DNA of 64,000 nucleotides from Escherichia phage vB_EcoM_ESCO47, in sequence record OM386662.1; one strand, written 5' to 3'. This document shows positions 15,904 through 64,000 of the stretch, piece by piece; within the stretch, counting starts at the first letter, position 1, and each line of letters opens with the position of its first letter. The translations under genes and the position numbers were made by a program. The notes under the pieces were generated by a model. That model made no database searches and was not told the DNA's origin. It saw nothing but the letters and a program-made list of their open reading frames with translations.

Positions 15904-16635
15904 ATGGAACTAATCTTCTTAAGTGGTCTCAAACGCAGTGGTAAAGACACTACAGCAGACTACATCAATTCAAACTTTAAATCCATTAAATACCAATTGG
16001 CCGCACCGCTAAAAGACGCTCTAGCTATTGCATGGGCTCGCAAACACGACGAAAATCCGGATGTGTTCATTGAATTAAAATATGAATATTTTGAAGGTGT
16101 CGGGTATGATCGTGAAACACCATTAGACCTTAACAATTTAGACGTTATTGAACTAATGGAAGAAGCTATTACTTATTTGCAAAAGTGTTATTTGCCTATA
16201 GGTGATATTAAAATACTGTCGGCTGGAGACGAATACTCTTATTTAGATGTTAAATCCTACAATGCTCTGCGAGACGTTATAAATAAAATCAACGACACAT
16301 GGTCTATCCGCCGTCTTATGCAAGCCCTCGGTACGGATGTTGTTGTTGATTTATTTGACCGTATGTATTGGGTTAAGCTTTTTGCATTAAACTATATGGA
16401 TTATATTGGAAGTGATTTTGATTACTACGTTGTAACCGATACACGCCAAGTCCATGAAATGGAAACCGCTAGAGCGATGGGTGCTACAGTTATTCACGTA
16501 GTTCGCTCTGGACAGGAATCCAATGATACACATATTACAGAAGCTGGGTTGCCTATTGAAGAAAGCGACCTGGTTATTACAAACGACGGCTCCCTAGAAG
16601 AGCTTTATTCTAAAATTGAAACTATCTTAAGGTAA
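15904..16635 (+). CDS. 1: Deoxynucleoside monophosphate kinase gp1
   Basis: P-loop SGLKRSGKDTTAD; sequence close to recalled T4 gp1. Confidence 0.9.
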   Translation: MELIFLSGLKRSGKDTTADYINSNFKSIKYQLAAPLKDALAIAWARKHDENPDVFIELKYEYFEGVGYDRETPLDLNNLDVIELMEEAITYLQKCYLPIGDIKILSAGDEYSYLDVKSYNALRDVINKINDTWSIRRLMQALGTDVVVDLFDRMYWVKLFALNYMDYIGSDFDYYVVTDTRQVHEMETARAMGATVIHVVRSGQESNDTHITEAGLPIEESDLVITNDGSLEELYSKIETILR

Positions 16636-19418: not shown

Positions 19419-19493
19419 GGCCCTTTAGCTCAATGGGAGAGCTGTCAGCTCATAACTGATAGGTAGCTGGATCGAAACCAGCAAGGGTCACCA
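19419..19493 (+). tRNA. tRNA with CAU anticodon (Met or lysidine-modified Ile)
   Basis: Manual cloverleaf: acceptor GGCCCTT/AAGGGTC, D-arm GCTC..GAGC, anticodon loop CTCATAA, T-stem GCTGG/CCAGC, 3' CCA encoded. Confidence 0.75.
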
Positions 19494-19497
19494 ATTT

Positions 19498-19569
19498 GGA
19501 TGCATAGCTCAGTGGTAGAGCAGTTGACTGTTAATCAATTGGTCCATGGTTCGAATCCATGTGTGTCCG
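19498..19569 (+). tRNA. tRNA-Asn (GUU anticodon)
   Basis: Manual cloverleaf: D-loop AGTGGTA, anticodon loop CTGTTAA, T-arm CATGG-TTCGAAT-CCATG; acceptor with G-U pairs; no encoded CCA. Confidence 0.7.
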
Positions 19570-19576
19570 CAAATTA

Positions 19577-19652
19577 CGAGGCATAGCTCAGAAGGAAGAG
19601 CAAGGACCTTCTAAGTCCTAGGTCGTAGGTTCGATCCCTACTGTCTCGACCA
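19577..19652 (+). tRNA. tRNA-Arg (UCU anticodon)
   Basis: Manual cloverleaf: acceptor CGAGGCA/TGTCTCG, anticodon loop CTTCTAA, T-loop TTCGATC, CCA encoded; T4 also carries tRNA-Arg(UCU). Confidence 0.75.
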
Positions 19653-21930: not shown

Positions 21931-22533
21931 ATGCGAAACCAAAATAATGATATTGACTCAATGTTCGAAGAGTTCCGAGATAAGGTAAATCCACCTACGT
22001 CTTTAGTTGATTCATTACGATATGTTGCAACCGGACGTAAATGGTACTGGTCGTCTTCTTATGAGACCACCGAGAAAACGGCTAGCCATAGCAGAAAATC
22101 TTTATTAGCCCCAGGTATTATGATTCATGATATCGGAGCTATTGCTAAACTAGTTGCAGACCATGATATTAGATTCACTGATTTCGTTGCTCCTACGTGG
22201 TCTGTTTGTTGTTTAAACACTGAATGGGAATATATCAGCGAACGCTCTGAAGATTATTATGGTTTTAGAGATAAGCTTCTGAGGTCTAATATGTTTTATA
22301 TCGATACAGAAGTTCTAGTCGATAATAAAAAATATTACTTTACGTTAATCATCGATTCTGAAACTATGTATGAAGGCAAGCCTTTGCTTAAAAGAGTTGA
22401 TGCTTTAAGTGCTATTGATGCGCTTTATGAAACTATGGTTGTTAGTCCTAATTTCACTAACAATTTAATCCTTGAGCAATTTATTATGGAATGTAGAGAA
22501 TATGTCAAAGCCAACCCTGTACATGCCAATTAA
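21931..22533 (+). CDS. Hypothetical protein
   Basis: Start set at MRNQNND after AAGGAG RBS; follows terminator hairpin. Confidence 0.5.
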   Translation: MRNQNNDIDSMFEEFRDKVNPPTSLVDSLRYVATGRKWYWSSSYETTEKTASHSRKSLLAPGIMIHDIGAIAKLVADHDIRFTDFVAPTWSVCCLNTEWEYISERSEDYYGFRDKLLRSNMFYIDTEVLVDNKKYYFTLIIDSETMYEGKPLLKRVDALSAIDALYETMVVSPNFTNNLILEQFIMECREYVKANPVHAN

Positions 22534-24353: not shown

Positions 24354-25310
24354 ATGATGTTAGTTATTGGTTCTCGTGCACTTCACTATCACGGTCTTAT
24401 TGATTCTAGCGCTATTAAAAATAGTGATTGGGACTTTATTGCGGATCAAGGTTCTTGGAATGCATTCAAAAATCAAATGATGGGTGTATATGTTCACCAA
24501 GATAACCCTGATGTCCAAGTTTTCAAATGCTTCCATAATGGACGCGAAACTCATTTTGAAGCATATATTGTTCCGGCAATCACTAATGTCCGTGAATTAG
24601 TCGGTGAACTCACTCCTGAAGATTTCACGTCTTCTTATGACCTTTTAAAATACGCCAGGAAAAATTTGACTAAAGACCGTTTGAACGGGTTTTACTGGGC
24701 AACTCCTGAGATATGTCTTGCAATTAAGATGTCTCATCGTTTCAAGAAAAATAATCCATTCTTTTTAAAGACTATGAACCATATTCAGTATCTTCGTGGT
24801 AAAGGTGTTACACCGAACGATGAACTTACTGAAATTATGCTGAAACGCCAGAAAGAAACCTTGAATTATGCTCACCCAGTTCTTGACACTTCTAAAAGTG
24901 CGTTCTTTAAAGATGACATCTATACATATGACCATGATACTATTCATGAAGCCATTGCACTAACAGACCGTCCAGCGTATACATTTTATATGAAAGACGG
25001 TTCTGAAGTCATGACCTCACGCGAGAAGTTCGAATTGTTACCAGAAATGGTCAAATTGGCCGGTGTATACGAAGAATCATGTGTACTAGCATTAGAACGT
25101 TCTCAGATTCCTAATGACTTTAAAATTAACCCTGAAGCCAGTTTCATGATGGCATTGGAAAAAGTCTGTACAAGCATCACCTCCGGTTGGTTCCGTGAGT
25201 ATGCCTGGGAAAACTACAGCAAAGTAGTAAGTATGTACCAAAGCTTAGGACATGATGATTACATCAAACGTTTCAAACAAAATTTCCATATGGTAAAACC
25301 TTTCAAATAA
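24354..25310 (+). CDS. Predicted nucleotidyltransferase-fold protein
   Basis: N-terminal GSRALHYHG...SDWDFIAD fits the minimal nucleotidyltransferase GS...DxD signature; GAGGA RBS. Confidence 0.5.
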   Translation: MMLVIGSRALHYHGLIDSSAIKNSDWDFIADQGSWNAFKNQMMGVYVHQDNPDVQVFKCFHNGRETHFEAYIVPAITNVRELVGELTPEDFTSSYDLLKYARKNLTKDRLNGFYWATPEICLAIKMSHRFKKNNPFFLKTMNHIQYLRGKGVTPNDELTEIMLKRQKETLNYAHPVLDTSKSAFFKDDIYTYDHDTIHEAIALTDRPAYTFYMKDGSEVMTSREKFELLPEMVKLAGVYEESCVLALERSQIPNDFKINPEASFMMALEKVCTSITSGWFREYAWENYSKVVSMYQSLGHDDYIKRFKQNFHMVKPFK

Positions 25311-39785: not shown

Positions 39786-40763
39786 ATGAGTATTACATCA
39801 AACGCAGTAAAACATGAAATCAATGTATTATGCTCCAAACAACTTCCGATTTGGTTTGCTACCAGCAATCGTCGCGAATCTCTTAATTATGAAGCGATCG
39901 CTGTTCAAGTTCATCAACTGTTAATTACTAAATTTGATTTCCATGTACCGTCAGAAATCTATATTAAGTTGGCTATTACGTTGCTTAAAGAGTGCAAAAA
40001 TTATGGTCGCTCTATGGCAGACGGTATTTTCAACGCGTTGAACAAGCTTAATGTTCTGTCAATGGTTAACTCAAACAATATTTTGCGTAATCTCGGACGT
40101 ACTGATCTGTTCTGTCGTGAAAAAGGTAAAATGACACTCAAACAGATCGCCCATCATCTCAACCAGAACCAGTCTAGGTTTATCGCAGTATCGGCACGGT
40201 TACAGACTGGTCTGAATCGTCAGATGAATTTTAAAACGTTTTCAAAATATCCGGGTTATAACGAATTCTTTAAATGCGAAGTCCAGAACATTGGTGGTAA
40301 AACCGTGTTGGTTGTTCGTGTAACATTTGAAGGACGTCGTCAGCATTATTTTAATATTATCGGGTCCGGCCTTCAACATTTAGGTTTTATCGACGAAGTT
40401 AAGATTTTACGTCAACCGAACGGATTCTCGATTGGGTACGAATGCACGTTAAAAGATGAGTTTTTAGAAAAAGCTCCTCCTAAATTCGTTGAAGCACCGC
40501 CGATTATGGCAACACGTGATATTGCCGAAGAAGACAAGCTTCAAGAGCTTATCGACAATCTTGAATCAGGATTTGATCAACCTGTACAGAAATTTAAATC
40601 AAAACATGCTGAACAAATCAAATATTTTGAAGAACTGATTAATGAGCTTAATGTAACTATTCAACAGACTGACGATGAAATCTCTCGATTAGCCGGTATG
40701 AATGGTAAAAATAAAACCGAACGAGCTAATCTTATTCAGGTTGTAAAACTTCTTAAGGAATGA
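39786..40763 (+). CDS. Hypothetical protein with C-terminal coiled coil (paralog pair A)
   Basis: 325 aa; GAGGAA RBS; upstream CCAAGGAYGG...TATAAT element shared with next gene. Confidence 0.5.
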   Translation: MSITSNAVKHEINVLCSKQLPIWFATSNRRESLNYEAIAVQVHQLLITKFDFHVPSEIYIKLAITLLKECKNYGRSMADGIFNALNKLNVLSMVNSNNILRNLGRTDLFCREKGKMTLKQIAHHLNQNQSRFIAVSARLQTGLNRQMNFKTFSKYPGYNEFFKCEVQNIGGKTVLVVRVTFEGRRQHYFNIIGSGLQHLGFIDEVKILRQPNGFSIGYECTLKDEFLEKAPPKFVEAPPIMATRDIAEEDKLQELIDNLESGFDQPVQKFKSKHAEQIKYFEELINELNVTIQQTDDEISRLAGMNGKNKTERANLIQVVKLLKE

Positions 40764-40821
40764 TGTACAACCAAGGACGGATGGAGTATAATCATTCTAT
40801 CTTAACCAAGAGGAGAACATT

Positions 40822-41775
40822 ATGAAAACTCGTTCACATTACATTGATTACTTTGCAGGTCTTATCGCTAACGTTCATGCCCAACGTGCTTCTGGTGTAC
40901 TAGGATTTGATGTTCCACACCGAGATGTAGTAAGTGGTATTCTTCGAGATTTTGGTACATACATAGGCCAAGAAAATCATATCTGTAAAGATACTCAAAA
41001 TGCATATTCTCATTCATTAGGGACACTGCTTCAATGGTTCAAACGTTCTCGTTTATTATCTTCTACTGTAGCTCGCGATAACATTAAAAACTTTATGAAG
41101 CCGAGCTTTATTAAATCTGTGACATCTAAAACCGATTTGGTTGAATTCACTATTGTTAATGATGTTAAAAAGACTCGTTTGGCTGATTGGTTAACTACCA
41201 TTCCTGAAACTAAATTTGCTGATAAATTTGCTTGTGAATTCAATAACCAAGTGAATATGCTTTTTAAACATTCTCGTAAATTATTCACAGGCGGCGATGA
41301 TCGTACAAATACAGTTCATGCTAAAGATTGGGTTACTGCAGTGTTCAAACCAACCGGTAATGGTACCGCATCATTATCAATTGATATTCAGGTTCCTTAT
41401 TATTACTCACGTAATCTCGGCACCATGAAAGCTGAAGAAATTAAGAAGCACAATAAAACCATTCGTTCGCTGACTTATAAACTTCGCATGATGTTAAGAA
41501 TCATGGACGTGGTAGAAATGTATGATGAAACCGAAGATAACGGTTCAATGTTATTCAGTTCTCGTATTCAAATTAAGCTGAAGAACCCTAATACGTATAA
41601 ACCTAAGCCTATTAAAGAACCTAAAGTAGAAAAAGTTGATAATTTAAGAGAAGAACGCGAATATCTCAAATCTCGTCTGAAAGAAGTCGAAGCCCAGATT
41701 GCAGAACAAACTAAATCGTTAAAAGCTCTGAATGCGAAAGCGGATGGTTTACGAAATGCCATTGAGGTTTTATAA
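40822..41775 (+). CDS. Hypothetical protein with C-terminal coiled coil (paralog pair B)
   Basis: 317 aa; AGAGGAG RBS; similar size and architecture to 39786-40763. Confidence 0.5.
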   Translation: MKTRSHYIDYFAGLIANVHAQRASGVLGFDVPHRDVVSGILRDFGTYIGQENHICKDTQNAYSHSLGTLLQWFKRSRLLSSTVARDNIKNFMKPSFIKSVTSKTDLVEFTIVNDVKKTRLADWLTTIPETKFADKFACEFNNQVNMLFKHSRKLFTGGDDRTNTVHAKDWVTAVFKPTGNGTASLSIDIQVPYYYSRNLGTMKAEEIKKHNKTIRSLTYKLRMMLRIMDVVEMYDETEDNGSMLFSSRIQIKLKNPNTYKPKPIKEPKVEKVDNLREEREYLKSRLKEVEAQIAEQTKSLKALNAKADGLRNAIEVL

Positions 41776-49917: not shown

Positions 49918-49944
49918 ACCTATGAATTGAGCCAAGAGGTACTT

Positions 49945-50505
49945 ATGACTAATGTAAAGTTAACCAAAAATAACTATGTAAATAACAAAGAGCTTCTCGC
50001 TGCTATAACGGAGTGGAAAAAGGAGCTCCTAAATAATAAAGACCATAATAAAATTGTTCGACAGAATGATACAATAGGGTTGGCAATTATGCTAATTGCT
50101 GAAGGTCTCTCTAAACGTTTTAACTTTTCAGGATACACCCAGTCTTGGAAACAAGAAATGATTGCCGACGGAATTGAAGCTTCTATTAAAGGACTTCATA
50201 ATTTTGATGAGACTAAATACACTAACCCACATGCATACATAACTCAAGCTTGTTTTAATGCTTTTGTCCAACGTATCAAAAAAGAGCGTAAGGAAGTTGC
50301 AAAGAAATATAGTTACTTCGTTCATAATGTCTATGACAGCCATGACGATGATATGGTAGCGTTGGTAGATGAAACCTTTATTCAGGACATTTACGATAAA
50401 ATGACGCATTACGAAGAATCTGCTTATAAAGCTCCTGGGGCTGAAAAGAAGGAAACTGTTCGCGATTCACCAAGTTTGGATTTTTTATATGAGGACGACA
50501 ATTGA
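49945..50505 (+). CDS. 55: Late-transcription sigma factor gp55
   Basis: [20 protein letters not shown]...[47 protein letters not shown] matches recalled T4 gp55; start set at MTNVKL with AGAGGT RBS. Confidence 0.9.
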
Positions 50506-50707
50506 CATCTCTAATTTTTTAGAAGAACCATTTGATGAAGCATTACCTTATTCCGTAAAAATGTTGGGTCGAGAAGCATTTAAAATTAATTTCGATATCG
50601 ACCCTTTAAATCCACATGACGTATCCTTTTCAATTAATGGACAAGAAGTTGAGTACACGTTTAGTATTGAAGAGGATGGACGTTTTTATTTTAATTTGAT
50701 GAGATAA
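50489..50707 (+). CDS. Hypothetical protein
   Basis: 72-aa ORF overlapping gene 55 end; start uncertain. Confidence 0.35.
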
Positions 50708-50708
50708 T

Positions 50709-51074
50709 ATGAATACCGAGATTATTGAAAGCGCTGAACATAAATTGGCTAAAGAATTTGAAGAAATTCGTGAAGCCGAAAACAAAGAAGCCGAAGATAA
50801 AGTAGCCAAAATGCTACAAGAAATCCAAAAGAAAAATGAAGCTGAAGCCGCTAAGAAAGCCGAAAAGATTCTTAAAAAGAATCGCGGTGAACTCAACCGT
50901 CTTTATGCTCATGCGCAAGAAGCTGCAATTCAAAATAACTTCGAAGCTTATGAATACGCTATTAAAAAATCTCGTGATATTCTGCGTCAACCTTACACCG
51001 ACGAATTGATTAAAATTCAGTGGGTTACCACTCGTCAGGCTATTGAGGATATCATTAATGGCATTAGTAAATAA
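50709..51074 (+). CDS. Hypothetical helical protein
   Basis: 121-aa ORF, Glu/Lys/Ala-rich. Confidence 0.45.
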   Translation: MNTEIIESAEHKLAKEFEEIREAENKEAEDKVAKMLQEIQKKNEAEAAKKAEKILKKNRGELNRLYAHAQEAAIQNNFEAYEYAIKKSRDILRQPYTDELIKIQWVTTRQAIEDIINGISK

Positions 51075-51258
51075 ACCATTTAAACGGCTTCTAGTAGGAG
51101 CCGCTTTTAGACTTCGCTCTTATGGTGATATTTGTATCAAGCAGTCCGAAACCGAATACAAAATGATTGGACGTACGTCTGATGGTATTTTTCAGATTGA
51201 GCCTGTAGCGAAGGTATGGGTAGATTCACATCAACTTAAAAAATGGTGGCAGCGTTGA
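51058..51258 (+). CDS. Hypothetical protein
   Basis: Start MALVNKPF with GAGGA RBS; followed by intrinsic terminator. Confidence 0.4.
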   Translation: MALVNKPFKRLLVGAAFRLRSYGDICIKQSETEYKMIGRTSDGIFQIEPVAKVWVDSHQLKKWWQR

Positions 51259-51266
51259 ATAATTTA

Positions 51267-51293
51267 AAGGAAGCACTAGTGCTTCCTTTTTTT
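51267..51293 (+). terminator. Intrinsic terminator
   Basis: AGGAAGCAC-TA-GTGCTTCCT palindrome followed by TTTTTTT. Confidence 0.7.
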
Positions 51294-51317
51294 GCTTTCT
51301 ATACGGGATGATAGAAT
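51291..51317 (+). promoter_or_regulatory. MotA-dependent middle promoter candidate (genes 47/46)
   Basis: TTTGCTTTC, 12 bp, -10 TAGAAT; directly after terminator. Confidence 0.45.
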
Positions 51318-51341
51318 GAATTATCTTAATGAGGAAATGAT

Positions 51342-52361
51342 ATGAAAATTTTGCAATTAGGTGACTTCCATATCGGGGTCAAACAAGACGACCCATGGGT
51401 TCAAGATATTCAGCGTGACGGCATTCGACAAGCAATTGAGTATTCTAAGAAAAACGGAATTAACACATGGATTCAATATGGTGATTGGTTTGATGTCCGT
51501 AAAGCAATAACACATCGCACAATGGAATTTAACCGTGAACTGGTCAACATGATTACTAAAGCTGGTATTCGTGTCCATGTAACTATCGGGAATCATGACA
51601 TTGCGTTCAAGAATACAATAACACCAAATACGGTTTCTGAACTACTTACCCAATTTGAAAACTTTACAATCTATGAACATCCAACTACAGTAGATTTCGA
51701 CGGTTGTCTTATTGATATTATTCCATGGATGTGTGAAGAGAATACAGGCGAAATCTTAGAACATATCAAAACGAGTTCAGCCGCGTATTGTGTTGGGCAC
51801 TGGGAACTGAATGGCTTTTATTTCTATAAAGGAATGAAGTCTCATGGGCTTGAACCTGATTTCTTAAAGACTTATAAACAAGTCTGGTCCGGCCACTTCC
51901 ACACAATCTCTGAAGCTGCTAACGTCAAATATATTGGGACACCATGGACCCTTACTGCAGGTGATGAGAATGATCCTCGCGGATTCTGGGTATTTGACAC
52001 TGATGTTGAACGTATGGAATTTATTCCTAATGAAACAACATGGCATCGACGAATCACTTATCCGTTTAAAGGCAAAATCAATTATTCTGATTATACTAAT
52101 CTAGCCGTACGTGTTATAGTATCAGAAATTGATTCAGAGTTGACTAAGTTTGAATCTGAACTTGAAAAAGTAGTTCACTCTCTTCGTATGGTTTCTAAAG
52201 TTGATAACAGTGTTGAATCTGATGACGACCAGGAAATCGAGATTAAATCACTTCAAGATATCATTAAAGAATATATTGACGCGATTCCAGATATCTCGGA
52301 CGAAGACAGAGAAGCGCTGGTCAAATATTCCAACGAACTTTATATTGAGGCAACACAATGA
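51342..52361 (+). CDS. 47: Recombination endonuclease subunit gp47 (Mre11-like)
   Basis: MKILQLGDFHIGVKQDDPWVQ...; phosphoesterase motifs GDxHxG, GNHD; 339 aa as T4 gp47. Confidence 0.95.
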   Translation: MKILQLGDFHIGVKQDDPWVQDIQRDGIRQAIEYSKKNGINTWIQYGDWFDVRKAITHRTMEFNRELVNMITKAGIRVHVTIGNHDIAFKNTITPNTVSELLTQFENFTIYEHPTTVDFDGCLIDIIPWMCEENTGEILEHIKTSSAAYCVGHWELNGFYFYKGMKSHGLEPDFLKTYKQVWSGHFHTISEAANVKYIGTPWTLTAGDENDPRGFWVFDTDVERMEFIPNETTWHRRITYPFKGKINYSDYTNLAVRVIVSEIDSELTKFESELEKVVHSLRMVSKVDNSVESDDDQEIEIKSLQDIIKEYIDAIPDISDEDREALVKYSNELYIEATQ

Positions 52362-52841: not shown

Positions 52842-54526
52842 AATCATTTAAATTAAATCGTGTTCGTTATAAAAATATAATGTCTGTTGGGCAAAATTTT
52901 ATCGATATCCAATTAGATAAAGTCCAAAAGACCTTAATCACAGGTAAAAATGGTGGTGGTAAATCTACGATGTTAGAAGCCATCACTTTTGGACTTTTCG
53001 GCAAACCATTTCGTGATGTTAAGAAAGGACAAATCATTAATAGCACGAACAAGAAAGAGCTCTTAGTTGAGCTTTGGATGGAATTCGATGATAAAAAATA
53101 CTTCATCAAACGAGGTCAAAAGCCCAATATTTTCGAAATCTCCGTTGACGGTGTTCGTCTCGATGAATCTGCCAGCAGTCGTGACTTCCAAGAAGAATTT
53201 GAACGTAGCATCGGAATGTCCTATGCGTCTTTTAAACAAATCGTCGTTCTTGGTACAGCAGGGTATACCCCTTTCATGGCTCTTAGCACCCCAGCTCGTA
53301 GAAAACTTGTCGAAGACCTTTTAGAAGTCGGCACACTCGCTGAAATGGATAAAATCAATAAGTCTCAAGTTCGCGAACTTAATTCCCGGGGGCAAGTTCT
53401 CGATGCCAAGAAAGATGGTGTTATCCAACAAATTAAGATTTATAATGAGAATATCGAACGTCAAAAGAAATTATCCGGTGATAATGTAGCTCGTCTACAG
53501 AATATGTATGATGACCTGGCTAAAGAAGCTCGGTCATTAAAAGCAGAAATCGAAGAAGCTAATGAGCGACTACTTAATATCGTTCTTGACGAAGACCCTA
53601 CTGAGGCATTCAACAAGATAGGACAAGAAGCATTATTGATTAAATCTAAAATTGACTCATATAACAAAGTTATTAAGATGTATCATGACGGCGGTACATG
53701 TCCTACTTGTGCATCACAGTTGCACCAGGGTGATCCTATTGTCTCTAAGATTACCGATAAGCTTCATGAATGTAATCACTCATTCGAGCAACTTACCTGT
53801 CACAGAGATAATCTGAGTGTCCTAGTGGACGAATATAGAGCTAATGTTAAGACTAAACAGGACCTTGCATCTGATATTCGTACCAAGAAACAAGCAATGA
53901 TTGCCACTATTGATAAAGCTAAGAAAGTTAAAGCTGCAATAGAGCAAGCCTCAGCAGAATTTATCGACCATGCCGATGAGATAGCTTTGCTTCAAAAAGA
54001 ACTTGATAAAATCATTAAAACAAAATCGGATATCGTTCTTGAAAAATACCATCGTGGTATTATCACAGATATGTTAAAAGATTCTGGTATTAAAGGTGCT
54101 ATCATTAAAAAATATGTGCCTCTGTTCAACAAGCAGATTAACCATTACCTTAAAATCATGGAAGCTGATTACGTGTTTTCTATTGATGAAGAATTCAATG
54201 AATCTATAAAATCCCGTGGTCGTGAAGATTTTAGTTATGCTTCATTTAGCCAAGGTGAAAAAGCACGTATTGATATCGCTTTATTGTTCACATGGCGAGA
54301 TATTGCTGAAAAGGTTTCTGGTGTTAGAATCAATACATTAATTATGGACGAAGTCATGGATTCCGCGACTGATTCTGAAGGTATTAAAGCTATTTCAACA
54401 ATTCTTAACTCTCTAACCGATGCAAACGTGTTTATAATTAGTCACAGAGACCATGACCCACAAGCTTATGGACAACATCTTCAAATGAGCAAAGTTGGAC
54501 GATTTACTGTAATGAAAGCCTCTTAA
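52838..54526 (+). CDS. 46: Recombination endonuclease subunit gp46 (Rad50/SbcC-like ATPase)
   Basis: Walker A GKNGGGKST, long coiled coil with CPTC zinc hook, signature SQGEKARIDIAL, Walker B LIMDEV; 562 aa. Confidence 0.95.
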   Translation: MKSFKLNRVRYKNIMSVGQNFIDIQLDKVQKTLITGKNGGGKSTMLEAITFGLFGKPFRDVKKGQIINSTNKKELLVELWMEFDDKKYFIKRGQKPNIFEISVDGVRLDESASSRDFQEEFERSIGMSYASFKQIVVLGTAGYTPFMALSTPARRKLVEDLLEVGTLAEMDKINKSQVRELNSRGQVLDAKKDGVIQQIKIYNENIERQKKLSGDNVARLQNMYDDLAKEARSLKAEIEEANERLLNIVLDEDPTEAFNKIGQEALLIKSKIDSYNKVIKMYHDGGTCPTCASQLHQGDPIVSKITDKLHECNHSFEQLTCHRDNLSVLVDEYRANVKTKQDLASDIRTKKQAMIATIDKAKKVKAAIEQASAEFIDHADEIALLQKELDKIIKTKSDIVLEKYHRGIITDMLKDSGIKGAIIKKYVPLFNKQINHYLKIMEADYVFSIDEEFNESIKSRGREDFSYASFSQGEKARIDIALLFTWRDIAEKVSGVRINTLIMDEVMDSATDSEGIKAISTILNSLTDANVFIISHRDHDPQAYGQHLQMSKVGRFTVMKAS

Positions 54527-55239
54527 TGAGGCTTATGTTTACAGTTATCAAAATGCCAACGATGCATATTAGCAGGGATCCCTATTTTATCGCAATGAGG
54601 ACATTTAATTTTCTTGTCCTCTTTTTTCTTTCTGTTAGGATTTGATTTACAGAATTTTATATGCGGCTTTAACGCCGATAACTTAGTAGTTAAGCCACAA
54701 AACGGGCAAGAATCTTCTTTCCAAATTTTCGTGGCCATGGTTTTAATTATTTTATCCTTTGTTTCTTGATCAAGTTTTACTATTTTAGGCGTAGGGCCTT
54801 GTTTACAGTTATCAAAATGCCAACGTCTCATGTTTCCTTCAGTGCCAGTTAAACCGCAGTGTGGACATGTAATCTTTGGTTTATTTTTTGCAGACTCGGA
54901 CATTTTCTTACGAGTTTCAGCAGTGAATTCTTTGTTCTTTTGAACTTCTTGATTCTTACGTCGAAGCCATCCAAATAATTTGTTTTTGCTTCTATCTGCT
55001 TTAGGAGATGAGATAGTCATCATACGAGCAGCATATATTAAAGAGGCATTATCTGGATGGATTTTTACTAGCAGTTGATGTGCCAAATAATGTTCTTCTG
55101 GTGTTAAATCTACTAAGTTTAAAGCATCATCACTTCCACCTAAACATTGTGGTATAATGTAATGACGTTCTGTATAACCATCTAAACTTCTTGATTTAGC
55201 ATTGGTGATAAGCTTTTCGTATATTGAGTTATAATTCAT
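54523..55239 (-). CDS. Free-standing HNH homing-endonuclease-like protein with triple zinc-finger repeats
   Basis: N-terminal HNH-like ERHYIIPQCLGGSDDALNLVDLTPEEHYLAH; three CPHCG...WHFDNCK repeats; opposite strand to neighbours; AAGGA RBS. Confidence 0.7.
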   Translation of the reverse strand: MNYNSIYEKLITNAKSRSLDGYTERHYIIPQCLGGSDDALNLVDLTPEEHYLAHQLLVKIHPDNASLIYAARMMTISSPKADRSKNKLFGWLRRKNQEVQKNKEFTAETRKKMSESAKNKPKITCPHCGLTGTEGNMRRWHFDNCKQGPTPKIVKLDQETKDKIIKTMATKIWKEDSCPFCGLTTKLSALKPHIKFCKSNPNRKKKEDKKIKCPHCDKIGIPANMHRWHFDNCKHKPH

Positions 55240-58722: not shown

Positions 58723-61434
58723 ATGCAAGAATTTTATTTGACAGTAGAACAGATTGGTGACTCAATTTTCGAACGTTATATCGATTCTAACGGTCGTGAA
58801 CGTGTTCGTGAAGTAGAGTATAAGCCATCATTGTTTGCACATTGTCCCGAAAGTCAGGCTACAAAATATTTTGATATCTATGGTAAACCATGTACTCGTA
58901 AGTTATTCGCTAATATGCGTGACGCATCTCAGTGGATTAAACGCATGGAAGATATCGGTCTTGAAGCATTAGGTATGGACGATTTTAAATTGTCTTATAT
59001 CAGTGATACGTATCCGGTTGATATCAAATACGACCATACTAAAATTCGTGTAGCGAACTTTGACATCGAAGTAACATCTCCTGACGGGTTCCCTGAGCCG
59101 TCACAAGCAAAACATCCTATTGATGCTATCACTCATTATGACTCAATTGATGACAGGTTTTATGTATTTGACCTTTTGAATTCTCCATATGGTAATGTAG
59201 AAGAATGGTCTATCGAAATTGCGGCTAAGCTTCAAGAACAAGGCGGTGATGAAGTTCCATCCGAAATTATCGACAAAATTGTTTATATGCCGTTTGATAA
59301 TGAAAAAGAATTATTGATGGAATATCTCAATTTCTGGCAACAGAAAACTCCTGTCATTTTAACCGGATGGAACGTTGAGACATTTGATATTCCATATGTG
59401 TATAACAGAATCAAGAATATTTTTGGTGAATCCACAGCAAAACGGTTGTCACCACATCGCAAGACTCGTGTTAAAGTTATTGAAAACATGTATGGTTCAC
59501 GAGAAATCATTACATTGTTTGGTATCTCTGTTCTTGATTATATCGACCTTTACAAAAAGTTCTCTTTCACGAACCAACCGTCATATTCTCTGGACTATGT
59601 TTCAGAATTTGAATTGAATGTTGGTAAACTGAAATACGACGGTCCTATTTCTAAACTTCGCGAAAGTAATCATCAACGATATATAAGCTATAACATCATC
59701 GACGTATATCGTGTATTGCAAATTGATGCTAAACGCCAGTTCATTAACTTGAGCTTGGACATGGGTTATTATGCTAAAATTCAGATTCAATCTGTGTTCA
59801 GTCCAATTAAAACTTGGGACGCTATTATTTTTAATAGCCTTAAAGAACAAAACAAGGTGATTCCACAAGGTCGTTCGCATCCAGTTCAACCTTACCCGGG
59901 TGCTTTTGTTAAGGAACCTATTCCAAATCGATACAAATATGTGATGAGCTTCGACCTCACATCTCTGTATCCAAGCATCATTCGCCAAGTGAATATTAGC
60001 CCAGAAACAATAGCAGGAACGTTTAAAGTAGCTCCATTACATGATTATATTAACGCTGTTGCTGAACGTCCTTCTGATGTGTACAGTTGTTCTCCTAACG
60101 GCATGATGTATTATAAAGACCGTGACGGTGTTGTTCCAACTGAAATCACTAAAGTCTTTAATCAACGTAAAGAACATAAAGGTTATATGCTTGCGGCTCA
60201 ACGTAATGGTGAAATAATTAAAGAGGCCTTACATAATCCTAATCTTTCTGTTGATGAACCATTAGATGTTGATTATCGTTTTGACTTCACTGACGAGATT
60301 AAAGAAAAGATTAAAAAGTTGTCTGCTAAATCTCTTAATGAAATGTTGTTTAGAGCTCAACGTACTGAAGTTGCAGGTATGACTGCACAAATTAACCGTA
60401 AATTGCTCATCAACTCGCTTTATGGTGCACTTGGAAACGTTTGGTTCCGTTATTACGATTTGCGTAATGCAACTGCAATCACAACATTCGGTCAAATGGC
60501 TTTACAATGGATTGAACGTAAAGTTAATGAATATCTTAACGAAGTTTGTGGTACACAAGGCGAAGCTTTCGTTCTATATGGTGATACAGACTCCATTTAC
60601 GTATCTGTAGATAAAATTATTGATAAGGTTGGTGAATCTAAATTCCGCGATACTAACCATTGGGTAGACTTCTTAGATAAGTTCGCTCGTGAACGTATGG
60701 AACCTGCTATTGATAGAGGTTTCCGTGAAATGTGCGAATACATGAATAATAAGCAACATTTGATGTTCATGGACCGAGAAGCTATCGCTGGGCCTCCGCT
60801 TGGTTCTAAAGGTATTGGTGGATTCTGGACTGGTAAGAAACGTTATGCATTAAACGTGTGGGATATGGAAGGAACCAGATACGCTGAACCTAAGCTTAAA
60901 ATCATGGGTCTCGAAACACAGAAATCTTCGACTCCTAAAGCAGTACAGAAAGCTCTTAAGGAATGTATTCGTCGTATGCTTCAGGAAGGCGAAGAATCAT
61001 TACAAGAATATTTTAAAGAGTTTGAAAAAGAGTTCCGTCAGCTGGATTATATTAGCATCTCATCAGTGTCATCGGCAAATAACATTGCTAAATATGATGT
61101 CGGTGGATTCCCAGGTCCTAAATGTCCATTCCATATTCGTGGAATTCTGACATATAACCGAGCTATCAAAGGTAATATTGATGCTCCACAAGTTGTAGAA
61201 GGTGAAAAGGTATACGTTCTGCCTTTACGTGATGGAAACCCGTTCGGTGATAAATGTATCGCATGGCCATCTGGTACAGAAATCACTGATTTGATTAAAG
61301 ACGACGTGCTTCGTTGGATGGACTACACTGTTCTCCTTGAGAAGACATTTATTAACCCACTTGAAGGATTCACGTCAGCAGCGAAACTCGATTATGAGAA
61401 GAAAGCATCTCTGTTCGATATGTTCGATTTTTGA
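58723..61434 (+). CDS. 43: DNA polymerase gp43 (family B)
   Basis: 903 aa; exo motifs FDIE, YNIIDV; pol motifs DLTSLYPS, YGDTDS; sequence near-identical to recalled RB69 gp43. Confidence 0.97.
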   Translation: MQEFYLTVEQIGDSIFERYIDSNGRERVREVEYKPSLFAHCPESQATKYFDIYGKPCTRKLFANMRDASQWIKRMEDIGLEALGMDDFKLSYISDTYPVDIKYDHTKIRVANFDIEVTSPDGFPEPSQAKHPIDAITHYDSIDDRFYVFDLLNSPYGNVEEWSIEIAAKLQEQGGDEVPSEIIDKIVYMPFDNEKELLMEYLNFWQQKTPVILTGWNVETFDIPYVYNRIKNIFGESTAKRLSPHRKTRVKVIENMYGSREIITLFGISVLDYIDLYKKFSFTNQPSYSLDYVSEFELNVGKLKYDGPISKLRESNHQRYISYNIIDVYRVLQIDAKRQFINLSLDMGYYAKIQIQSVFSPIKTWDAIIFNSLKEQNKVIPQGRSHPVQPYPGAFVKEPIPNRYKYVMSFDLTSLYPSIIRQVNISPETIAGTFKVAPLHDYINAVAERPSDVYSCSPNGMMYYKDRDGVVPTEITKVFNQRKEHKGYMLAAQRNGEIIKEALHNPNLSVDEPLDVDYRFDFTDEIKEKIKKLSAKSLNEMLFRAQRTEVAGMTAQINRKLLINSLYGALGNVWFRYYDLRNATAITTFGQMALQWIERKVNEYLNEVCGTQGEAFVLYGDTDSIYVSVDKIIDKVGESKFRDTNHWVDFLDKFARERMEPAIDRGFREMCEYMNNKQHLMFMDREAIAGPPLGSKGIGGFWTGKKRYALNVWDMEGTRYAEPKLKIMGLETQKSSTPKAVQKALKECIRRMLQEGEESLQEYFKEFEKEFRQLDYISISSVSSANNIAKYDVGGFPGPKCPFHIRGILTYNRAIKGNIDAPQVVEGEKVYVLPLRDGNPFGDKCIAWPSGTEITDLIKDDVLRWMDYTVLLEKTFINPLEGFTSAAKLDYEKKASLFDMFDF

Positions 61435-61475: not shown

Positions 61476-62108
61476 ATGAAAACCACTCCTATTACTATCG
61501 CAATTGACGCAATCGTAAAGCAAGCTTCATCTCTGGCTACTATGGCTAAAGTAATTAGTCAAAATTCAGCTCGATACAATGCCATTCTTGAAACCTTGCG
61601 ACGTCCTGGTCTGAGTAATTATGAAAGTCGTGTAATTATTACCGGTGTCGGTAAAAATGCTAATATCGCAACTAAAGCTTCTGAAACATTTGCTTCACTC
61701 GGTATCCCGAGTATGTACTTGAACACTGGGCATTATTCTCACGGTGATGCAGGATTCATTGCGCCTAATGATGTGTTGATTCATATTAGTCGTTCTGGTA
61801 AAACTGAAGAAATGATTGGCGTGGCTAAGCATCTTAAAATGATTCGTCCGAACGTCAAACAGATTCTGTTGCATTGTAACCCGGACATTCCACAAGAAAA
61901 TGAAGCCCTTTTTGATTACTCTTTCTGTACAGGCATCGCAGTAGAGGTTGATGAGAATTCTCTGGCTCCGACTATGTCAACTACATTGTTGTTAGCGCTT
62001 ATCGATACGTTTGCTATCAACCTTTCATCTGAACGTGGATTTACCTCTAATGACTTCCTTAAGTTCCACCCTGGTGGTGCACTAGGTGCCATGTTACGAG
62101 GCGAATAA
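61476..62108 (+). CDS. SIS-domain sugar-phosphate isomerase (arabinose-5-phosphate isomerase KdsD/GutQ-like, no CBS domains)
   Basis: ITGVGKNANIATKASETFASLGIPS...SHGDAGFIAPNDVLIHISRSGKTEE...FLKFHPGGALG resembles KdsD SIS-domain motifs; ends where KdsD CBS domains would begin. Confidence 0.65.
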   Translation: MKTTPITIAIDAIVKQASSLATMAKVISQNSARYNAILETLRRPGLSNYESRVIITGVGKNANIATKASETFASLGIPSMYLNTGHYSHGDAGFIAPNDVLIHISRSGKTEEMIGVAKHLKMIRPNVKQILLHCNPDIPQENEALFDYSFCTGIAVEVDENSLAPTMSTTLLLALIDTFAINLSSERGFTSNDFLKFHPGGALGAMLRGE

Positions 62109-62251
62109 TGAAAGCAATAGCAATAGGACTTTTACTATTGATGCTTGTTATGACTATCTACTGGAGCTTAACTGCTCCAGTAATGGTTCCGACTCTTATA
62201 ATCGGATGGATTATGATTGGACTACAAGCAAAGTATGAATGCTTTAACTAG
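62108..62251 (+). CDS. Small hydrophobic peptide (47 aa)
   Basis: TAATG-coupled; two TM-like segments; below ORF-track cutoff. Confidence 0.3.
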   Translation: MKAIAIGLLLLMLVMTIYWSLTAPVMVPTLIIGWIMIGLQAKYECFN

Positions 62252-62292
62252 AATAGTGTACAATACTCCTACTTACCAATGAGGACCACAAC

Positions 62293-63978
62293 ATGAAAAA
62301 AGCTGTTATTCTTGGTGCTGGACTGGCAACTCGTTTGTATCCAATAACGCATCATATTCCTAAGGTGCTTGTTAACTATAAACAAGACACTATTCTGAGC
62401 AATTTGTATACAATTTATTCTGATCTTGGCGCAGACGAAATTATTGTAGTAGTTCATTCAAAATTTGCTGAAACTGTTCGAGCTTATTGTGAGCAAGAAG
62501 GGTTCAATGTGACTATTCGTACAGTTGATGAAGCGTATGGATCTGCTTATGCTCTTGCTAAATTACACAAAGATTTAGACGGCCATAATGTAATTGTTAA
62601 CTGGTGTGATATTATTCCTGATTTTGGTTCATGGTCATGGAATGTTAACGCAATCTATGTTAAGGGCGACGAATGTCGATATAATTTCGACGGTGAAAAT
62701 ATCACTAACGTAGGTTCAACAGGTGGTAATGTTGTAGGAATTTATCAGTTCAAAGACTGGGAATTCTATATGGGTTCTACCGATGAGGAAATTCATGAAT
62801 ACTGCAAAGGACGTGATTTCGTAGAATTCCTTTACGGCAGCGCATTCAATAAATCAGAGCTTATGAATCTAATTGATTTAGGTGATATGCCTAAACTTGA
62901 AAAAGCTCATGAAGTTCGTGAACTTAATCGTAGTTTTAATGCAGTTGAAATTGGTGAAGAAACTGTAACTAAATTCGCATTAACCGAACAGGGTCGAGCT
63001 CTTCAGAAAGATGAGATTTCATGGTATCTTAAAGTGAAATCAGATTCAGTTCCTCAGTTAGTTTCTGTTAATGAAAATAACTTTGAAATGGAACGCATTA
63101 AAGGTAGGCCGGCATTTGAATATATTAAATCCAAATCAAGTCTTGCTCGTCCACAAATTGTTGATGCAATTTTAGATGCACTGAAATTCAGCACAGACAC
63201 TTATTTTGTAAGTCCTGAAACTGTTCGTCGTGATTTCACTAAAGAATTCTATACTAAAGTTATTGATCGTTGTGAAAGCATTCAACCATTGATTGATTCA
63301 TTTGGTAAAATCACACATGTGAACTACACCAAGATTGGACGTCTGAAGCCAATGCTGAAACAAGCTTTAGAACACCTTATTCGTTATCATAACCGTTCTC
63401 AGGGACAGTACTCTGTTATTCATGGTGACCCGAACTTCAGTAATACTATGATTACTGATAACGGCGAAGTCAAGTTTATCGACCCTCGTGGATATTTTGG
63501 CGAAACCAAGATTTACGGCCCGAAATTGTATGATGAAGCTAAAGTGCTTTATGCTGTTTCAGGTTATGATGAATTCAATGCTAATCCGACCTGGGGGCAG
63601 TTTACTATTGATGAAACAACTTGTAATGTGTCTATTAACATCAATCCATTAGTTTACAAATATGGAAAGATGAGTTCGTTTAACGAGTATCATCATTTGG
63701 CAGTGGCAATTATCTGGATTGCATTAGGTGGTTATTTCAAGAATAATCCACTTAAAGCGGTAGCCGCATATTATAAAGGTATGGAACTTCTGACTAAGCA
63801 ATTACGTAACATGGGCCGTGTACTTCAGGACGGCTCTATTAGTTATGACGTAGCAGAACCTGTAACGGCTACACTGATTACAAAAAATCCTGGTAAATGG
63901 GTACTAACTGATAAAGAAACTGGTGTTTCCTATCGTCCAATCGGTGGCGATATCACTCATCAATGGGAACGAATCTAA
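62293..63978 (+). CDS. Bifunctional sugar-1-phosphate nucleotidyltransferase / sugar kinase (APH-fold) fusion
   Basis: N-terminus MKKAVILGAGLATRLYPITHHIPKVLV = NTP-transferase signature; C-terminus HGDPNFSNTMI...IDPRGYFG = aminoglycoside/choline-kinase-type catalytic loop. Confidence 0.65.
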   Translation: MKKAVILGAGLATRLYPITHHIPKVLVNYKQDTILSNLYTIYSDLGADEIIVVVHSKFAETVRAYCEQEGFNVTIRTVDEAYGSAYALAKLHKDLDGHNVIVNWCDIIPDFGSWSWNVNAIYVKGDECRYNFDGENITNVGSTGGNVVGIYQFKDWEFYMGSTDEEIHEYCKGRDFVEFLYGSAFNKSELMNLIDLGDMPKLEKAHEVRELNRSFNAVEIGEETVTKFALTEQGRALQKDEISWYLKVKSDSVPQLVSVNENNFEMERIKGRPAFEYIKSKSSLARPQIVDAILDALKFSTDTYFVSPETVRRDFTKEFYTKVIDRCESIQPLIDSFGKITHVNYTKIGRLKPMLKQALEHLIRYHNRSQGQYSVIHGDPNFSNTMITDNGEVKFIDPRGYFGETKIYGPKLYDEAKVLYAVSGYDEFNANPTWGQFTIDETTCNVSININPLVYKYGKMSSFNEYHHLAVAIIWIALGGYFKNNPLKAVAAYYKGMELLTKQLRNMGRVLQDGSISYDVAEPVTATLITKNPGKWVLTDKETGVSYRPIGGDITHQWERI

Positions 63979-64000
63979 TGCACCGTGTAGAAAACATGCT

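Follow-up and report, generated by a model that had tools for sequence, protein, structure and literature searches.

In phage T4 the α-glucosyltransferase gene α-gt (a-gt) lies between genes 55 and 47, in the order 55, a-gt.5, a-gt.4, a-gt.3, a-gt.2, mobB, a-gt, 47.1, 47, and its product has 400 amino acids, in agreement with the size of roughly 400 given in an initial annotation of the DNA studied here. In RB69, O157 typing phage 3 and NHEP10 the order is 55, a-gt.5, a-gt.4, a-gt.3, a-gt.2, 47, with no a-gt. RB69 is without a homologue of α-gt, β-gt or β-α-gt, and its DNA contains arabinose (PMC6024577). The RB69 base is arabinosylated 5-hydroxycytosine rather than hydroxymethylcytosine (hmC) and is made by a thymidylate-synthase homologue; its arabinosyltransferases are AraT1 (gp46:47) and AraT2 (gp3) (PMC13326640, 2026).

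The DNA analysed, hereafter the window, is a stretch of 64 kb out of the ~168 kb genome of Escherichia phage vB_EcoM_ESCO47 (sequence record OM386662.1). It is very probably part of a Mosigvirus genome, i.e. that of an RB69-like, T4-type phage (Straboviridae, Tevenvirinae) in which the 55–47 slot is natively devoid of a DNA glycosyltransferase and which follows the arabinosyl-5-hydroxycytosine route. More than 130 Mosigvirus records share ~91–93% DNA identity with the window, both across the 55–47 interval and across 24 kb. The nearest database record has only ~92–93% DNA identity, so that the phage is distinct from those already studied. Look-ups of identical proteins for a-gt.4 and for the product of 62293–63978, and scans of viral contigs for DNA identical to the a-gt.4 insertion or to the a-gt.3/terminator junction, gave no match. 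The 5-hydroxy-dCMP synthase, defined as a ThyA homologue with a D169N signature (RB69 gp48), both arabinosyltransferases and the dCTPase fall outside the window and were assumed from relatives.

Re-reading of the interval at 50506–51341 confirmed the content reported in the initial annotation: only three small ORFs (72, 121 and 66 amino acids), a terminator and a MotA-type promoter. All of the features retained are on the plus strand. The left border is gene 55, encoding the late-transcription sigma factor (49948–50505; phrog_234, E = 4.4e-68), the product of which is 90.9% identical to T4 gp55 over 176 amino acids and 96% identical to Mosigvirus gp55. The ORF list places its start at a TTG at 49927; the T4-like start is the ATG at 49948, which gives 185 amino acids. 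The first small ORF (50489–50707; 72 amino acids) shares its first 17 nt with the end of gene 55 and is an a-gt.5 homologue (Pfam PF17595, DUF5491, 57 bits, cutoff 27; phrog_1169, E = 4.6e-23), with 87% identity to RB69 a-gt.5 and 48% to T4 a-gt.5. The second (50709–51074; 121 amino acids) is an a-gt.4 homologue (Pfam PF10849, DUF2654, 99.4 bits, cutoff 25; phrog_951, E = 3e-36); over the shared part it is 93% identical to RB69 a-gt.4 and 60% identical to T4 a-gt.4, and its alignment with RB69 and AV109 places an insertion of 51 nt (17 codons) at 50727–50777. The third (51058–51258; phrog_1648, E = 1.2e-28) is an a-gt.3 homologue of 66 amino acids from its ATG, or of 71 from an upstream TTG, and is only 47% identical to RB69 a-gt.3 and 45% identical to T4 a-gt.3. 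It represents a divergent allele common to the AV109 group, with DNA almost identical to that of AV109 across the ORF. The family order after gene 55 (DUF5491, DUF2654, phrog_1648) matches that of T4, RB69 and Klebsiella phage Mineola. Judged by this homology, the three ORFs, far from being fillers, represent a-gt.5, a-gt.4 and a-gt.3, conserved genes of T4, and they are present with or without α-gt; the T4 genes a-gt.2, mobB, a-gt and 47.1 are missing from the window. The right border is gene 47, encoding an SbcD-like recombination nuclease subunit of 339 amino acids (51342–52361; phrog_100, E = 3.9e-133) that is 76% identical to T4 gp47 and 97% identical to Mosigvirus gp47; its ribosome-binding site is GAGG at 51331–51334. 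A minus-strand ORF at 50630–50896 (88 amino acids) was rejected as a gene, being antisense to the Lys/Glu/Ala-rich a-gt.4 coding sequence. Searches of Rfam gave no match in the 55–47 interval.

The terminator/promoter segment was compared by local pairwise alignment because the a-gt.2 indel caused MAFFT to misalign it; a T4 match near 55.6/nrdH in the local alignment was discarded, as it looks like a chance match of ribosome-binding-site type. The predicted intrinsic terminator occupies 51266–51297, with a stem of 10 bp (AAAGGAAGCA/TGCTTCCTTT) and a 4 nt loop at 51266–51289 followed by a T-run, and thus has the G+C-containing stem-loop and U-run of an intrinsic terminator. Its folding energy is −13.5 kcal/mol (z = −3.5), and none of 200 shuffled sequences folded as well. 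At the equivalent place RB69 has a stem-loop of other sequence, GGAACTC-TTCG-GAGTTCC. The T4 MotA box has the consensus (a/t)(a/t)(a/t)TGCTT(t/c)A and lies ~12 bp upstream of a −10 element TAnnnT. A putative MotA-type middle promoter for gene 47 was read at 51293–51317, comprising the MotA box TTTGCTTTC (TGCTTTC; 51293–51299), a 12 nt spacer and the −10 element TAGAAT (51312–51317). The extended site, TTTTGCTTTC-N12-TAGAAT at 51290–51317, fits the T4 consensus except for the last base of the box (C versus A). Its RB69 homologue, the module TTTGCTTTA-N11-TAAAAT in front of gene 47, matches the consensus throughout. The window contains 32 copies of the pattern TGCTT-N13–15-TANNNT, where 11.5 ± 3.5 are expected, and no shuffled sequence reached 32. 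The motA gene itself lies outside the window. On these sequence features the putative promoter would be active. The intrinsic terminator would end the 55/a-gt.x transcription unit, and the MotA-box middle promoter would restart transcription into 47-46.2-46.1-46.

Glucosyltransferases were sought with tblastn in all six frames of the 64 kb window. The best match of T4 α-gt had E = 0.016 over 69 amino acids (22018–22197), which is at chance level, and none fell in the interval. The claim that no α-gt lies between genes 55 and 47 thus held, and it extends to the whole 64 kb. For T4 β-gt (family PF09198) the best match in the window had E = 4.7, again chance; the neighbourhood of gene 42 lies outside the window, and no homologue of gene 42 (dCMP hydroxymethylase) was found within it. 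The run that missed α-gt and β-gt recovered a-gt.5, a-gt.4, a-gt.3 and genes 55 and 47. Pfam assigned no glycosyltransferase family to any of ten candidate ORFs. As a positive control, T4 α-gt scores 862 bits on PF11440; two further controls of RB69 type, gp3 and AraT1, gave no Pfam match. The Pfam screen was dropped and its negatives were not counted, since known RB69-type transferases are invisible to it. The absence of a transferase was instead assessed from tblastn with known transferases, from orthology with T4 and from phyletic spread.

The initial annotation had also proposed an alternative sugar pathway at 61476–63978. The genes there proved to be the RB69 arabinosylation sugar-nucleotide genes, with 98.6 and 99% amino-acid identity. 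The first (61476–62108) lies directly after the DNA polymerase gene, 43, as in RB69, and encodes a homologue of RB69 gp55, arabinose-5-phosphate isomerase (98.6% identity), which would catalyse the step with which UDP-arabinose synthesis begins. It matches phrog_5670, annotated 'arabinose 5-phosphate isomerase', with E = 7.7e-116 and has a SIS domain in Pfam (E = 1e-10). The second (62293–63978) encodes a bifunctional protein homologous to RB69 gp52:53 and AfhE, assigned by Pfam as a sugar-1-phosphate nucleotidyltransferase in its N-terminal part (NTP_transferase, E = 8.6e-10, residues 3–99) and as kinase-like in its C-terminal part (weak matches to kinase families, residues 308–409). It is 99.3% identical to the protein of O157 typing phage 3 and 99.1% identical to that of RB69 over the part annotated as intact in RB69. 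The roles of isomerase and of arabinose kinase/UDP-arabinose pyrophosphorylase have been proposed for the RB69 homologues (PMC13326640), and it is by analogy with these that the 62293–63978 product is assigned as an arabinose kinase/UDP-arabinose pyrophosphorylase. At 63978–64000 the window end cuts a third gene after seven codons. It is assigned from tblastn and synteny to a HAD-type phosphatase (RB69 gp51/AfhF homologue): residues 1–7 of the O157 typing phage 3 protein match at 63978–63998 with 100% identity, a match too short by itself but with which synteny agrees. Beyond this point relatives carry the phosphatase, a peptidase-like gene, a ThyA homologue, AraT1 and a kinase, the ThyA-family gene being ~2 kb past the position of the window end. 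In RB69 AraT1 is at 24.6–25.5 kb and AraT2 at 2.5–3.6 kb, outside the region covered by the window. In 153 related records, the AV109 group included, AraT1 reaches 95% identity or more.

The DNA chemistry of this phage, with the synthase and transferases encoded beyond the window, is predicted by analogy with RB69. The thymidylate-synthase homologue would make 5-hydroxy-dCMP, which would be incorporated into DNA. Ribulose 5-phosphate would be converted to UDP-arabinose by the isomerase (61476–62108), the kinase/uridylyltransferase (62293–63978) and the phosphatase (from 63978), and arabinosyltransferases encoded outside the window would attach the arabinose to the 5-hydroxyl group in DNA. The initial annotation had considered the interval consistent with a phage that carries hmC but does not glucosylate it in the T4 manner. 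The hmC element is outdated, the RB69 base being 5-hydroxycytosine; the second element stands, with arabinose genes present, and glucosylation of the T4 kind is almost certainly absent from this phage.

About two thirds of the genome lies outside the window, and the remaining ~100 kb might encode α-gt, or a β-gt/β-α-gt pair, so that the DNA would carry glucosyl-hmC and the arabinose genes would serve another purpose. Some T4-like phages without α-gt do encode β-gt and β-α-gt homologues next to gene 42 (PMC6024577). Against this, BlastP and HMM searches of RB69 found no glucosyltransferase (PMC6024577; PMC13326640), and the closest relatives have AraT1, not β-gt, after the gene 42 homologue. 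The α-gt homologues fall into bands at 90% identity or above (502 of 657) and at 60–80% (143 of 657). Among the matches listed, the upper band consists of T4-like coliphages and Shigella, Yersinia and Salmonella phages and the lower of Klebsiella and Raoultella phages, e.g. the Jiaodavirus Mineola, with no Mosigvirus in either. We consider a hidden glucosyltransferase to be extremely unlikely. An unrecognised DNA glycosyltransferase that substitutes for α-gt might also be sought among the uncharacterized ORFs of the window. As Pfam is blind to RB69-type arabinosyltransferases, ORFs negative in Pfam stay candidates, and three are of suitable size: 39786–40763 (325 amino acids) and 40822–41775 (317 amino acids), with no Pfam match, and 24354–25310 (318 amino acids), with DUF families only. 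The first two are homologues of T4 nrdC.6 (E = 8e-23) and nrdC.3 (E = 6e-112), respectively, and so are also found in a glucosylating phage, while the third has a wide distribution, in phages of Aeromonas, Pseudomonas, Gordonia, Streptomyces and Vibrio. Sequence searches of the PDB with these three Pfam-poor ORFs of ~320 amino acids gave chance matches only, and neither RB69 gp3 nor AraT1 matches anything in the window. A substitute transferase among them is exceedingly improbable.

The absence of α-gt might instead be confined to this strain and not be characteristic of its lineage, the gene having been deleted recently by recombination between flanking terminator/middle-promoter modules. T4 and Mineola have a stem-loop and (T/A)GCTTTA-N12-TAnAAT on both sides of α-gt and the window and RB69 have a single module; composite terminator–promoter motifs are known to bring about the shuffling of genes among T4-like phages (PMC2839356, PMC4122927); and a-gt.2, present in RB69, is also missing from the window. 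However, α-gt is absent at this site in every Mosigvirus record whose annotation was inspected, and its absence is therefore at least as old as the genus. Furthermore, tblastn found no α-gt fragment left in the window, and the arabinose pathway is present and would replace glucosylation. A recent deletion is thus very unlikely, and the slot is better regarded as natively empty. The same modules allow a broader, tentative reading, which we regard as possible but rather doubtful: that the slot beside gene 47 is a cassette site at which glycosyltransferase genes, bounded by regulatory modules, are gained and lost by T4-like genomes in the manner of PeSL elements. The sites compared comprise α-gt bracketed by two stem-loop-terminator and MotA-box promoter modules (T4 and Mineola), an empty site with a single module (the window and RB69) and a site filled by a homing-endonuclease-like gene (the AV109 group). 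If this reading were true, no other record compared would show the site in a more reduced state than the window, from which a-gt.2 is missing as well.

The missing α-gt is real but ordinary, and is already known biology for the RB69-like group. An empty 55–47 slot is the common state in T4-like phages: 657 phage records have an α-gt homologue, compared with 2568 that have a gp47 homologue. By itself the empty slot is weak evidence and is not diagnostic, but the arabinose genes after gene 43 are. CC31 and Moon have no α-gt homologue, yet encode β-gt and β-α-gt homologues (PMC6024577). This corrects a common shortcut, in that the absence of α-gt at its T4 position says little by itself and the informative marker is the set of sugar-nucleotide genes that follows the DNA polymerase gene. 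The result assigns the genome to the arabinosyl-5-hydroxycytosine group among T4-like phages and has little significance beyond annotation. The placement does predict that most restriction enzymes would be ineffective and that the phage would be either sensitive or resistant to particular modification-dependent defence systems, which would be of practical relevance for use of the phage in therapy or engineering.

Outside Mosigvirus, Kanagawavirus IME523, Krischvirus kvi/RB49 and Lazarusvirus KARL-1 have two to four small ORFs between genes 55 and 47 and no glycosyltransferase; they belong to other genera, and their DNA modifications may differ. T4 shares with the window homologous genes 55, 47, a-gt.5, a-gt.4 and a-gt.3 and a stem-loop with a middle-promoter-like module before the gene 47 unit, but differs from it in the additional a-gt.2, HNH endonuclease gene mobB, α-gt and 47.1 and in having the terminator/promoter module twice. 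The best matches to the interval are the Mosigvirus phages AV109, AV114, AV115, AV116 and AV118, which share its a-gt.3 allele and have a nearly identical terminator stem. Unlike the window, which has the site without an ORF, AV109 carries an ORF of 804 nt between the terminator and gene 47; from a weak GIY-YIG match (E = 0.004) its product of 267 amino acids is probably a seg-like homing endonuclease. RB69 has ~91–92% overall DNA identity to the window, which differs from it in the absence of a-gt.2, the 17-codon a-gt.4 insertion, the a-gt.3 allele, the sequence of the terminator stem and an HNH homing endonuclease between genes 46 and 45.2. Synteny with T4 and RB69 sets the two apart at this slot, which holds a-gt in T4 and is without it in RB69, and it is with RB69 that the window shares the arrangement of genes 55, a-gt.5, a-gt.4 and a-gt.3, terminator, putative MotA-type promoter and gene 47, together with arabinose genes directly after gene 43.

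Between gene 55 (late sigma factor) and gene 47 (SbcD-like nuclease subunit), T4 carries alpha-gt, as the initial annotation had stated; the T4 order is 55, a-gt.5, a-gt.4, a-gt.3, a-gt.2, mobB, a-gt, 47.1, 47. The T4 55, a-gt.5, a-gt.4, a-gt.3 and 47 proteins matched the window at the expected positions in tblastn searches. No match to a-gt.2 or 47.1 was found in the 64-kb window, and T4 alpha-gt and beta-gt gave chance-level matches only (best E = 0.016 and 4.7, respectively), in line with the reported lack of alpha-gt in the interval. The T4 MobB match was rejected as a different gene on the opposite (minus) strand (54523-55239), between genes 46 and 45.2. Its 238-aa product is an HNH homing endonuclease (phrog_655, E = 2.7e-64), and the N-terminal 130 residues share 43% identity with T4 MobB; NHEP10 has the same endonuclease (99% identical), whereas O157 typing phage 3 and T4 lack it between 46 and 45.2. 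The tRNA region (19419-19649) holds only three tRNA genes, compared with eight tRNA genes, two small stable RNAs and segB in T4.

Gene 55 (49948-50505, plus strand, 185 aa) was placed at the T4-like ATG rather than at the TTG of the ORF listing (49927), and its product is 90.9% identical to T4 gp55. Gene 47 (from 51342, plus strand, 339 aa; phrog_100, E = 3.9e-133) shares 76% identity with T4 gp47. The three small ORFs, terminator and MotA-type promoter described between them were accurate in every detail. By sequence similarity, the ORFs, all on the plus strand, are conserved T4 genes and not fillers: a-gt.5 (50489-50707, 72 aa; Pfam DUF5491, 57 bits), a-gt.4 (50709-51074, 121 aa; Pfam DUF2654, 99 bits) and a-gt.3 (51058-51258, 66 aa from ATG; phrog_1648, E = 1e-28). 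The plus-strand terminator (51266-51289), seven bases past the a-gt.3 stop, is a 10-bp stem-loop followed by a T-run (−13.5 kcal/mol, z = −3.5 on folding). The predicted plus-strand promoter (51293-51317) consists of TGCTTTC (51293-51299), which overlaps the T-run, a 12-nt spacer and TAGAAT (51312-51317), with a GAGG ribosome-binding site and then the gene 47 ATG on its 3' side. The window contains 32 matches to TGCTT-N13-15-TANNNT (11.5 expected), a number reached by no shuffle, as should be expected of a genome using MotA-type promoters. A second hairpin (51084-51104; CGGCUUC-UAGUA-GGAGCCG, −12 kcal/mol, z = −2.8, then CUUUU) sits within the a-gt.3 coding sequence, directly 3' of the a-gt.4 stop codon; it is common to AV109 and absent from RB69.

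Homologues of T4 alpha-gt, T4 beta-gt and T2 beta-alpha-gt are all absent from RB69, and its DNA bears arabinose in place of glucose (Thomas et al. 2018, PMC6024577); ORF003c was proposed as the transferase and ORF052/053 with ORF055 as UDP-arabinose genes (PMC6024577). The sugar is ether-bonded to 5-hydroxycytosine, not hydroxymethylcytosine (hmC), gp48 is a 5-hydroxy-dCMP synthase, and gp46:47 (AraT1) and gp3 (AraT2) are putative arabinosyltransferases (Lee et al. 2026, PMC13326640). Mosigviruses share this conserved modification gene set with about ten other groups (PMC13326640). In the light of these findings, the missing alpha-gt restates a published genus trait, one that had been described before for RB69-like phages. 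The initial annotation had seen it as compatible with hmC that is not glucosylated in the T4 manner; the direction of that reading stands, but its hmC premise does not, the RB69 base being 5-hydroxycytosine (PMC13326640). Gene 1 (dNMP kinase, 15904-16635; PF21448, E = 4e-95) shares 61% identity with T4 gp1, and its RB69 orthologue is listed within the modified-nucleotide pathway; the divergence may reflect a different substrate, 5-hydroxy-dCMP instead of hydroxymethyl-dCMP.

The empty slot had also been read as fitting the candidate alternative sugar pathway. Homologues of gp47 occur in 2568 phage records and those of alpha-gt in 657, the latter, among the matches listed, being essentially T4-like coliphages (at least 90% identity) and a Klebsiella/Raoultella group (about 66%). 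In Kanagawavirus IME523, Krischvirus kvi and Lazarusvirus KARL-1, too, 55 and 47 are separated only by small ORFs, two to four of them, and several cyanophage and Vi1-like records have genes 55 and 47 annotated under one match. CC31, Moon and similar phages lack an alpha-gt homologue, yet encode beta-gt and beta-alpha-gt homologues (PMC6024577). The rarity of alpha-gt relative to gp47, the other genera and CC31/Moon thus make an empty slot the common state; alone it is not very informative and does not predict DNA chemistry. The arabinose genes do, and it is they that carry the conclusion.

These genes make up the alternative sugar pathway postulated at 61476-63978, directly downstream of the DNA polymerase gene (58723-61434). 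An SIS-domain arabinose-5-phosphate isomerase (61476-62108; phrog_5670 'arabinose 5-phosphate isomerase', E = 8e-116) is 98.6% identical to RB69 gp55, and the second ORF (62293-63978), with a nucleotidyltransferase domain at its N-terminus and a kinase-like C-terminal part, shares 99% identity with RB69 gp52:53 and with the intact O157 typing phage 3 homologue. The window ends after seven codons of a HAD-type phosphatase gene, beyond which relatives carry a peptidase-like gene, a ThyA homologue, AraT1 and a nucleotide kinase.

The glycosyltransferase search proposed in the initial annotation was run on the 64-kb window only. Pfam and PHROGs scans found no GT family in its uncharacterised ORFs of at least 200 aa. 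In controls, Pfam readily detected T4 alpha-gt and beta-gt and was silent on RB69 gp3 (RB69 locus L008, 2520-3620) and AraT1 (locus L003, 32702-33601); a Pfam scan therefore cannot declare a T4-like genome glycosyltransferase-free, and other tests were applied. Neither gp3 nor AraT1 matched the 64-kb window by tblastn. The pair of roughly 320-aa ORFs that gave no Pfam hit proved to be homologues of T4 nrdC.6 and nrdC.3. The sole large ORF lacking a syntenic T4 counterpart (24354-25310, 318 aa; DUF7277 and DUF7275) was rejected because its homologues, present in 733 phage records, are spread over very diverse hosts, including Gordonia, Streptomyces, Pseudomonas and Vibrio; one record calls the homologue a putative nucleotidyltransferase. 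No window ORF is a credible transferase, and the known RB69-type transferases lie beyond the window. The nrdC.x region (39786-41775) is smaller than in T4 and O157 typing phage 3 and contains only an nrdC.6-like (27% identity) and an nrdC.3-like ORF (57%); in T4 the region also includes nrdC.4 and nrdC.5, and in O157 typing phage 3 it includes three ORFs of about 320 aa.

The 55-47 segment and its surrounding 24 kb share approximately 91-93% DNA identity with more than 130 Mosigvirus records, including RB69, O157 typing phage 3, F2, NHEP10 and AV1xx phages, and no database match to this region was closer; the genome is about 8% divergent from sequenced Mosigvirus phages. Its replication proteins are 95-100% identical to those of RB69, O157 typing phage 3 and NHEP10, which have the order 55, a-gt.5, a-gt.4, a-gt.3, a-gt.2, 47 and lack alpha-gt. 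Synteny with T4 and RB69 held: the small genes are common to both, and RB69 likewise lacks alpha-gt. The interval itself is a mosaic. Its a-gt.5 and a-gt.4 resemble the RB69 alleles, whereas RB69 a-gt.3 is only 47% identical at the protein level; the AV109 group has nearly identical a-gt.3 DNA (in AV109, L002, 2627-2948), not annotated there as a gene. RB69 has a-gt.2 and the window does not. Relative to RB69 and AV109, a-gt.4 contains a 51-nt in-frame insertion (50727-50777; 17 codons, SAEHKLAKEFEEIREAE) with no exact match in a viral contig collection. In AV109 an ORF of 267 aa, which matches GIY-YIG weakly, lies between the terminator and gene 47, where the window is empty. The absent a-gt.2, a-gt.4 insertion and swapped a-gt.3 allele are minor local peculiarities.

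The stem-loop and MotA-box/−10 module occurs once in the window (51266-51317) and once in RB69, and flanks alpha-gt on both sides in T4 and Klebsiella phage Mineola. In T4, a-gt.2 is followed by GGAGCTTCGGCTCC..TGCTTTA-N12-TAAAAT, mobB and a-gt, and a-gt by GGGCTTCGGCCC..AGCTTTA-N12-TATAAT, 47.1 and 47. In Mineola, GGGCTTCGGCCC-TTTTGCTTTA-N12-TAAAAT separates a-gt.2 from a-gt, and GGGCCTTCGGGCCC..TGCTATT separates a-gt from 47; the spacer motif of the window promoter, ACGGGA(A)TG, recurs in the upstream module. Comparison of these four genomes suggests that alpha-gt may be a cassette gained or lost at the 55-47 site in a PeSL-like manner. The modules are similar to PeSLs, the composite terminator-promoter motifs proposed to drive modular gene shuffling in T4-like phages (PMC2839356, PMC4122927).
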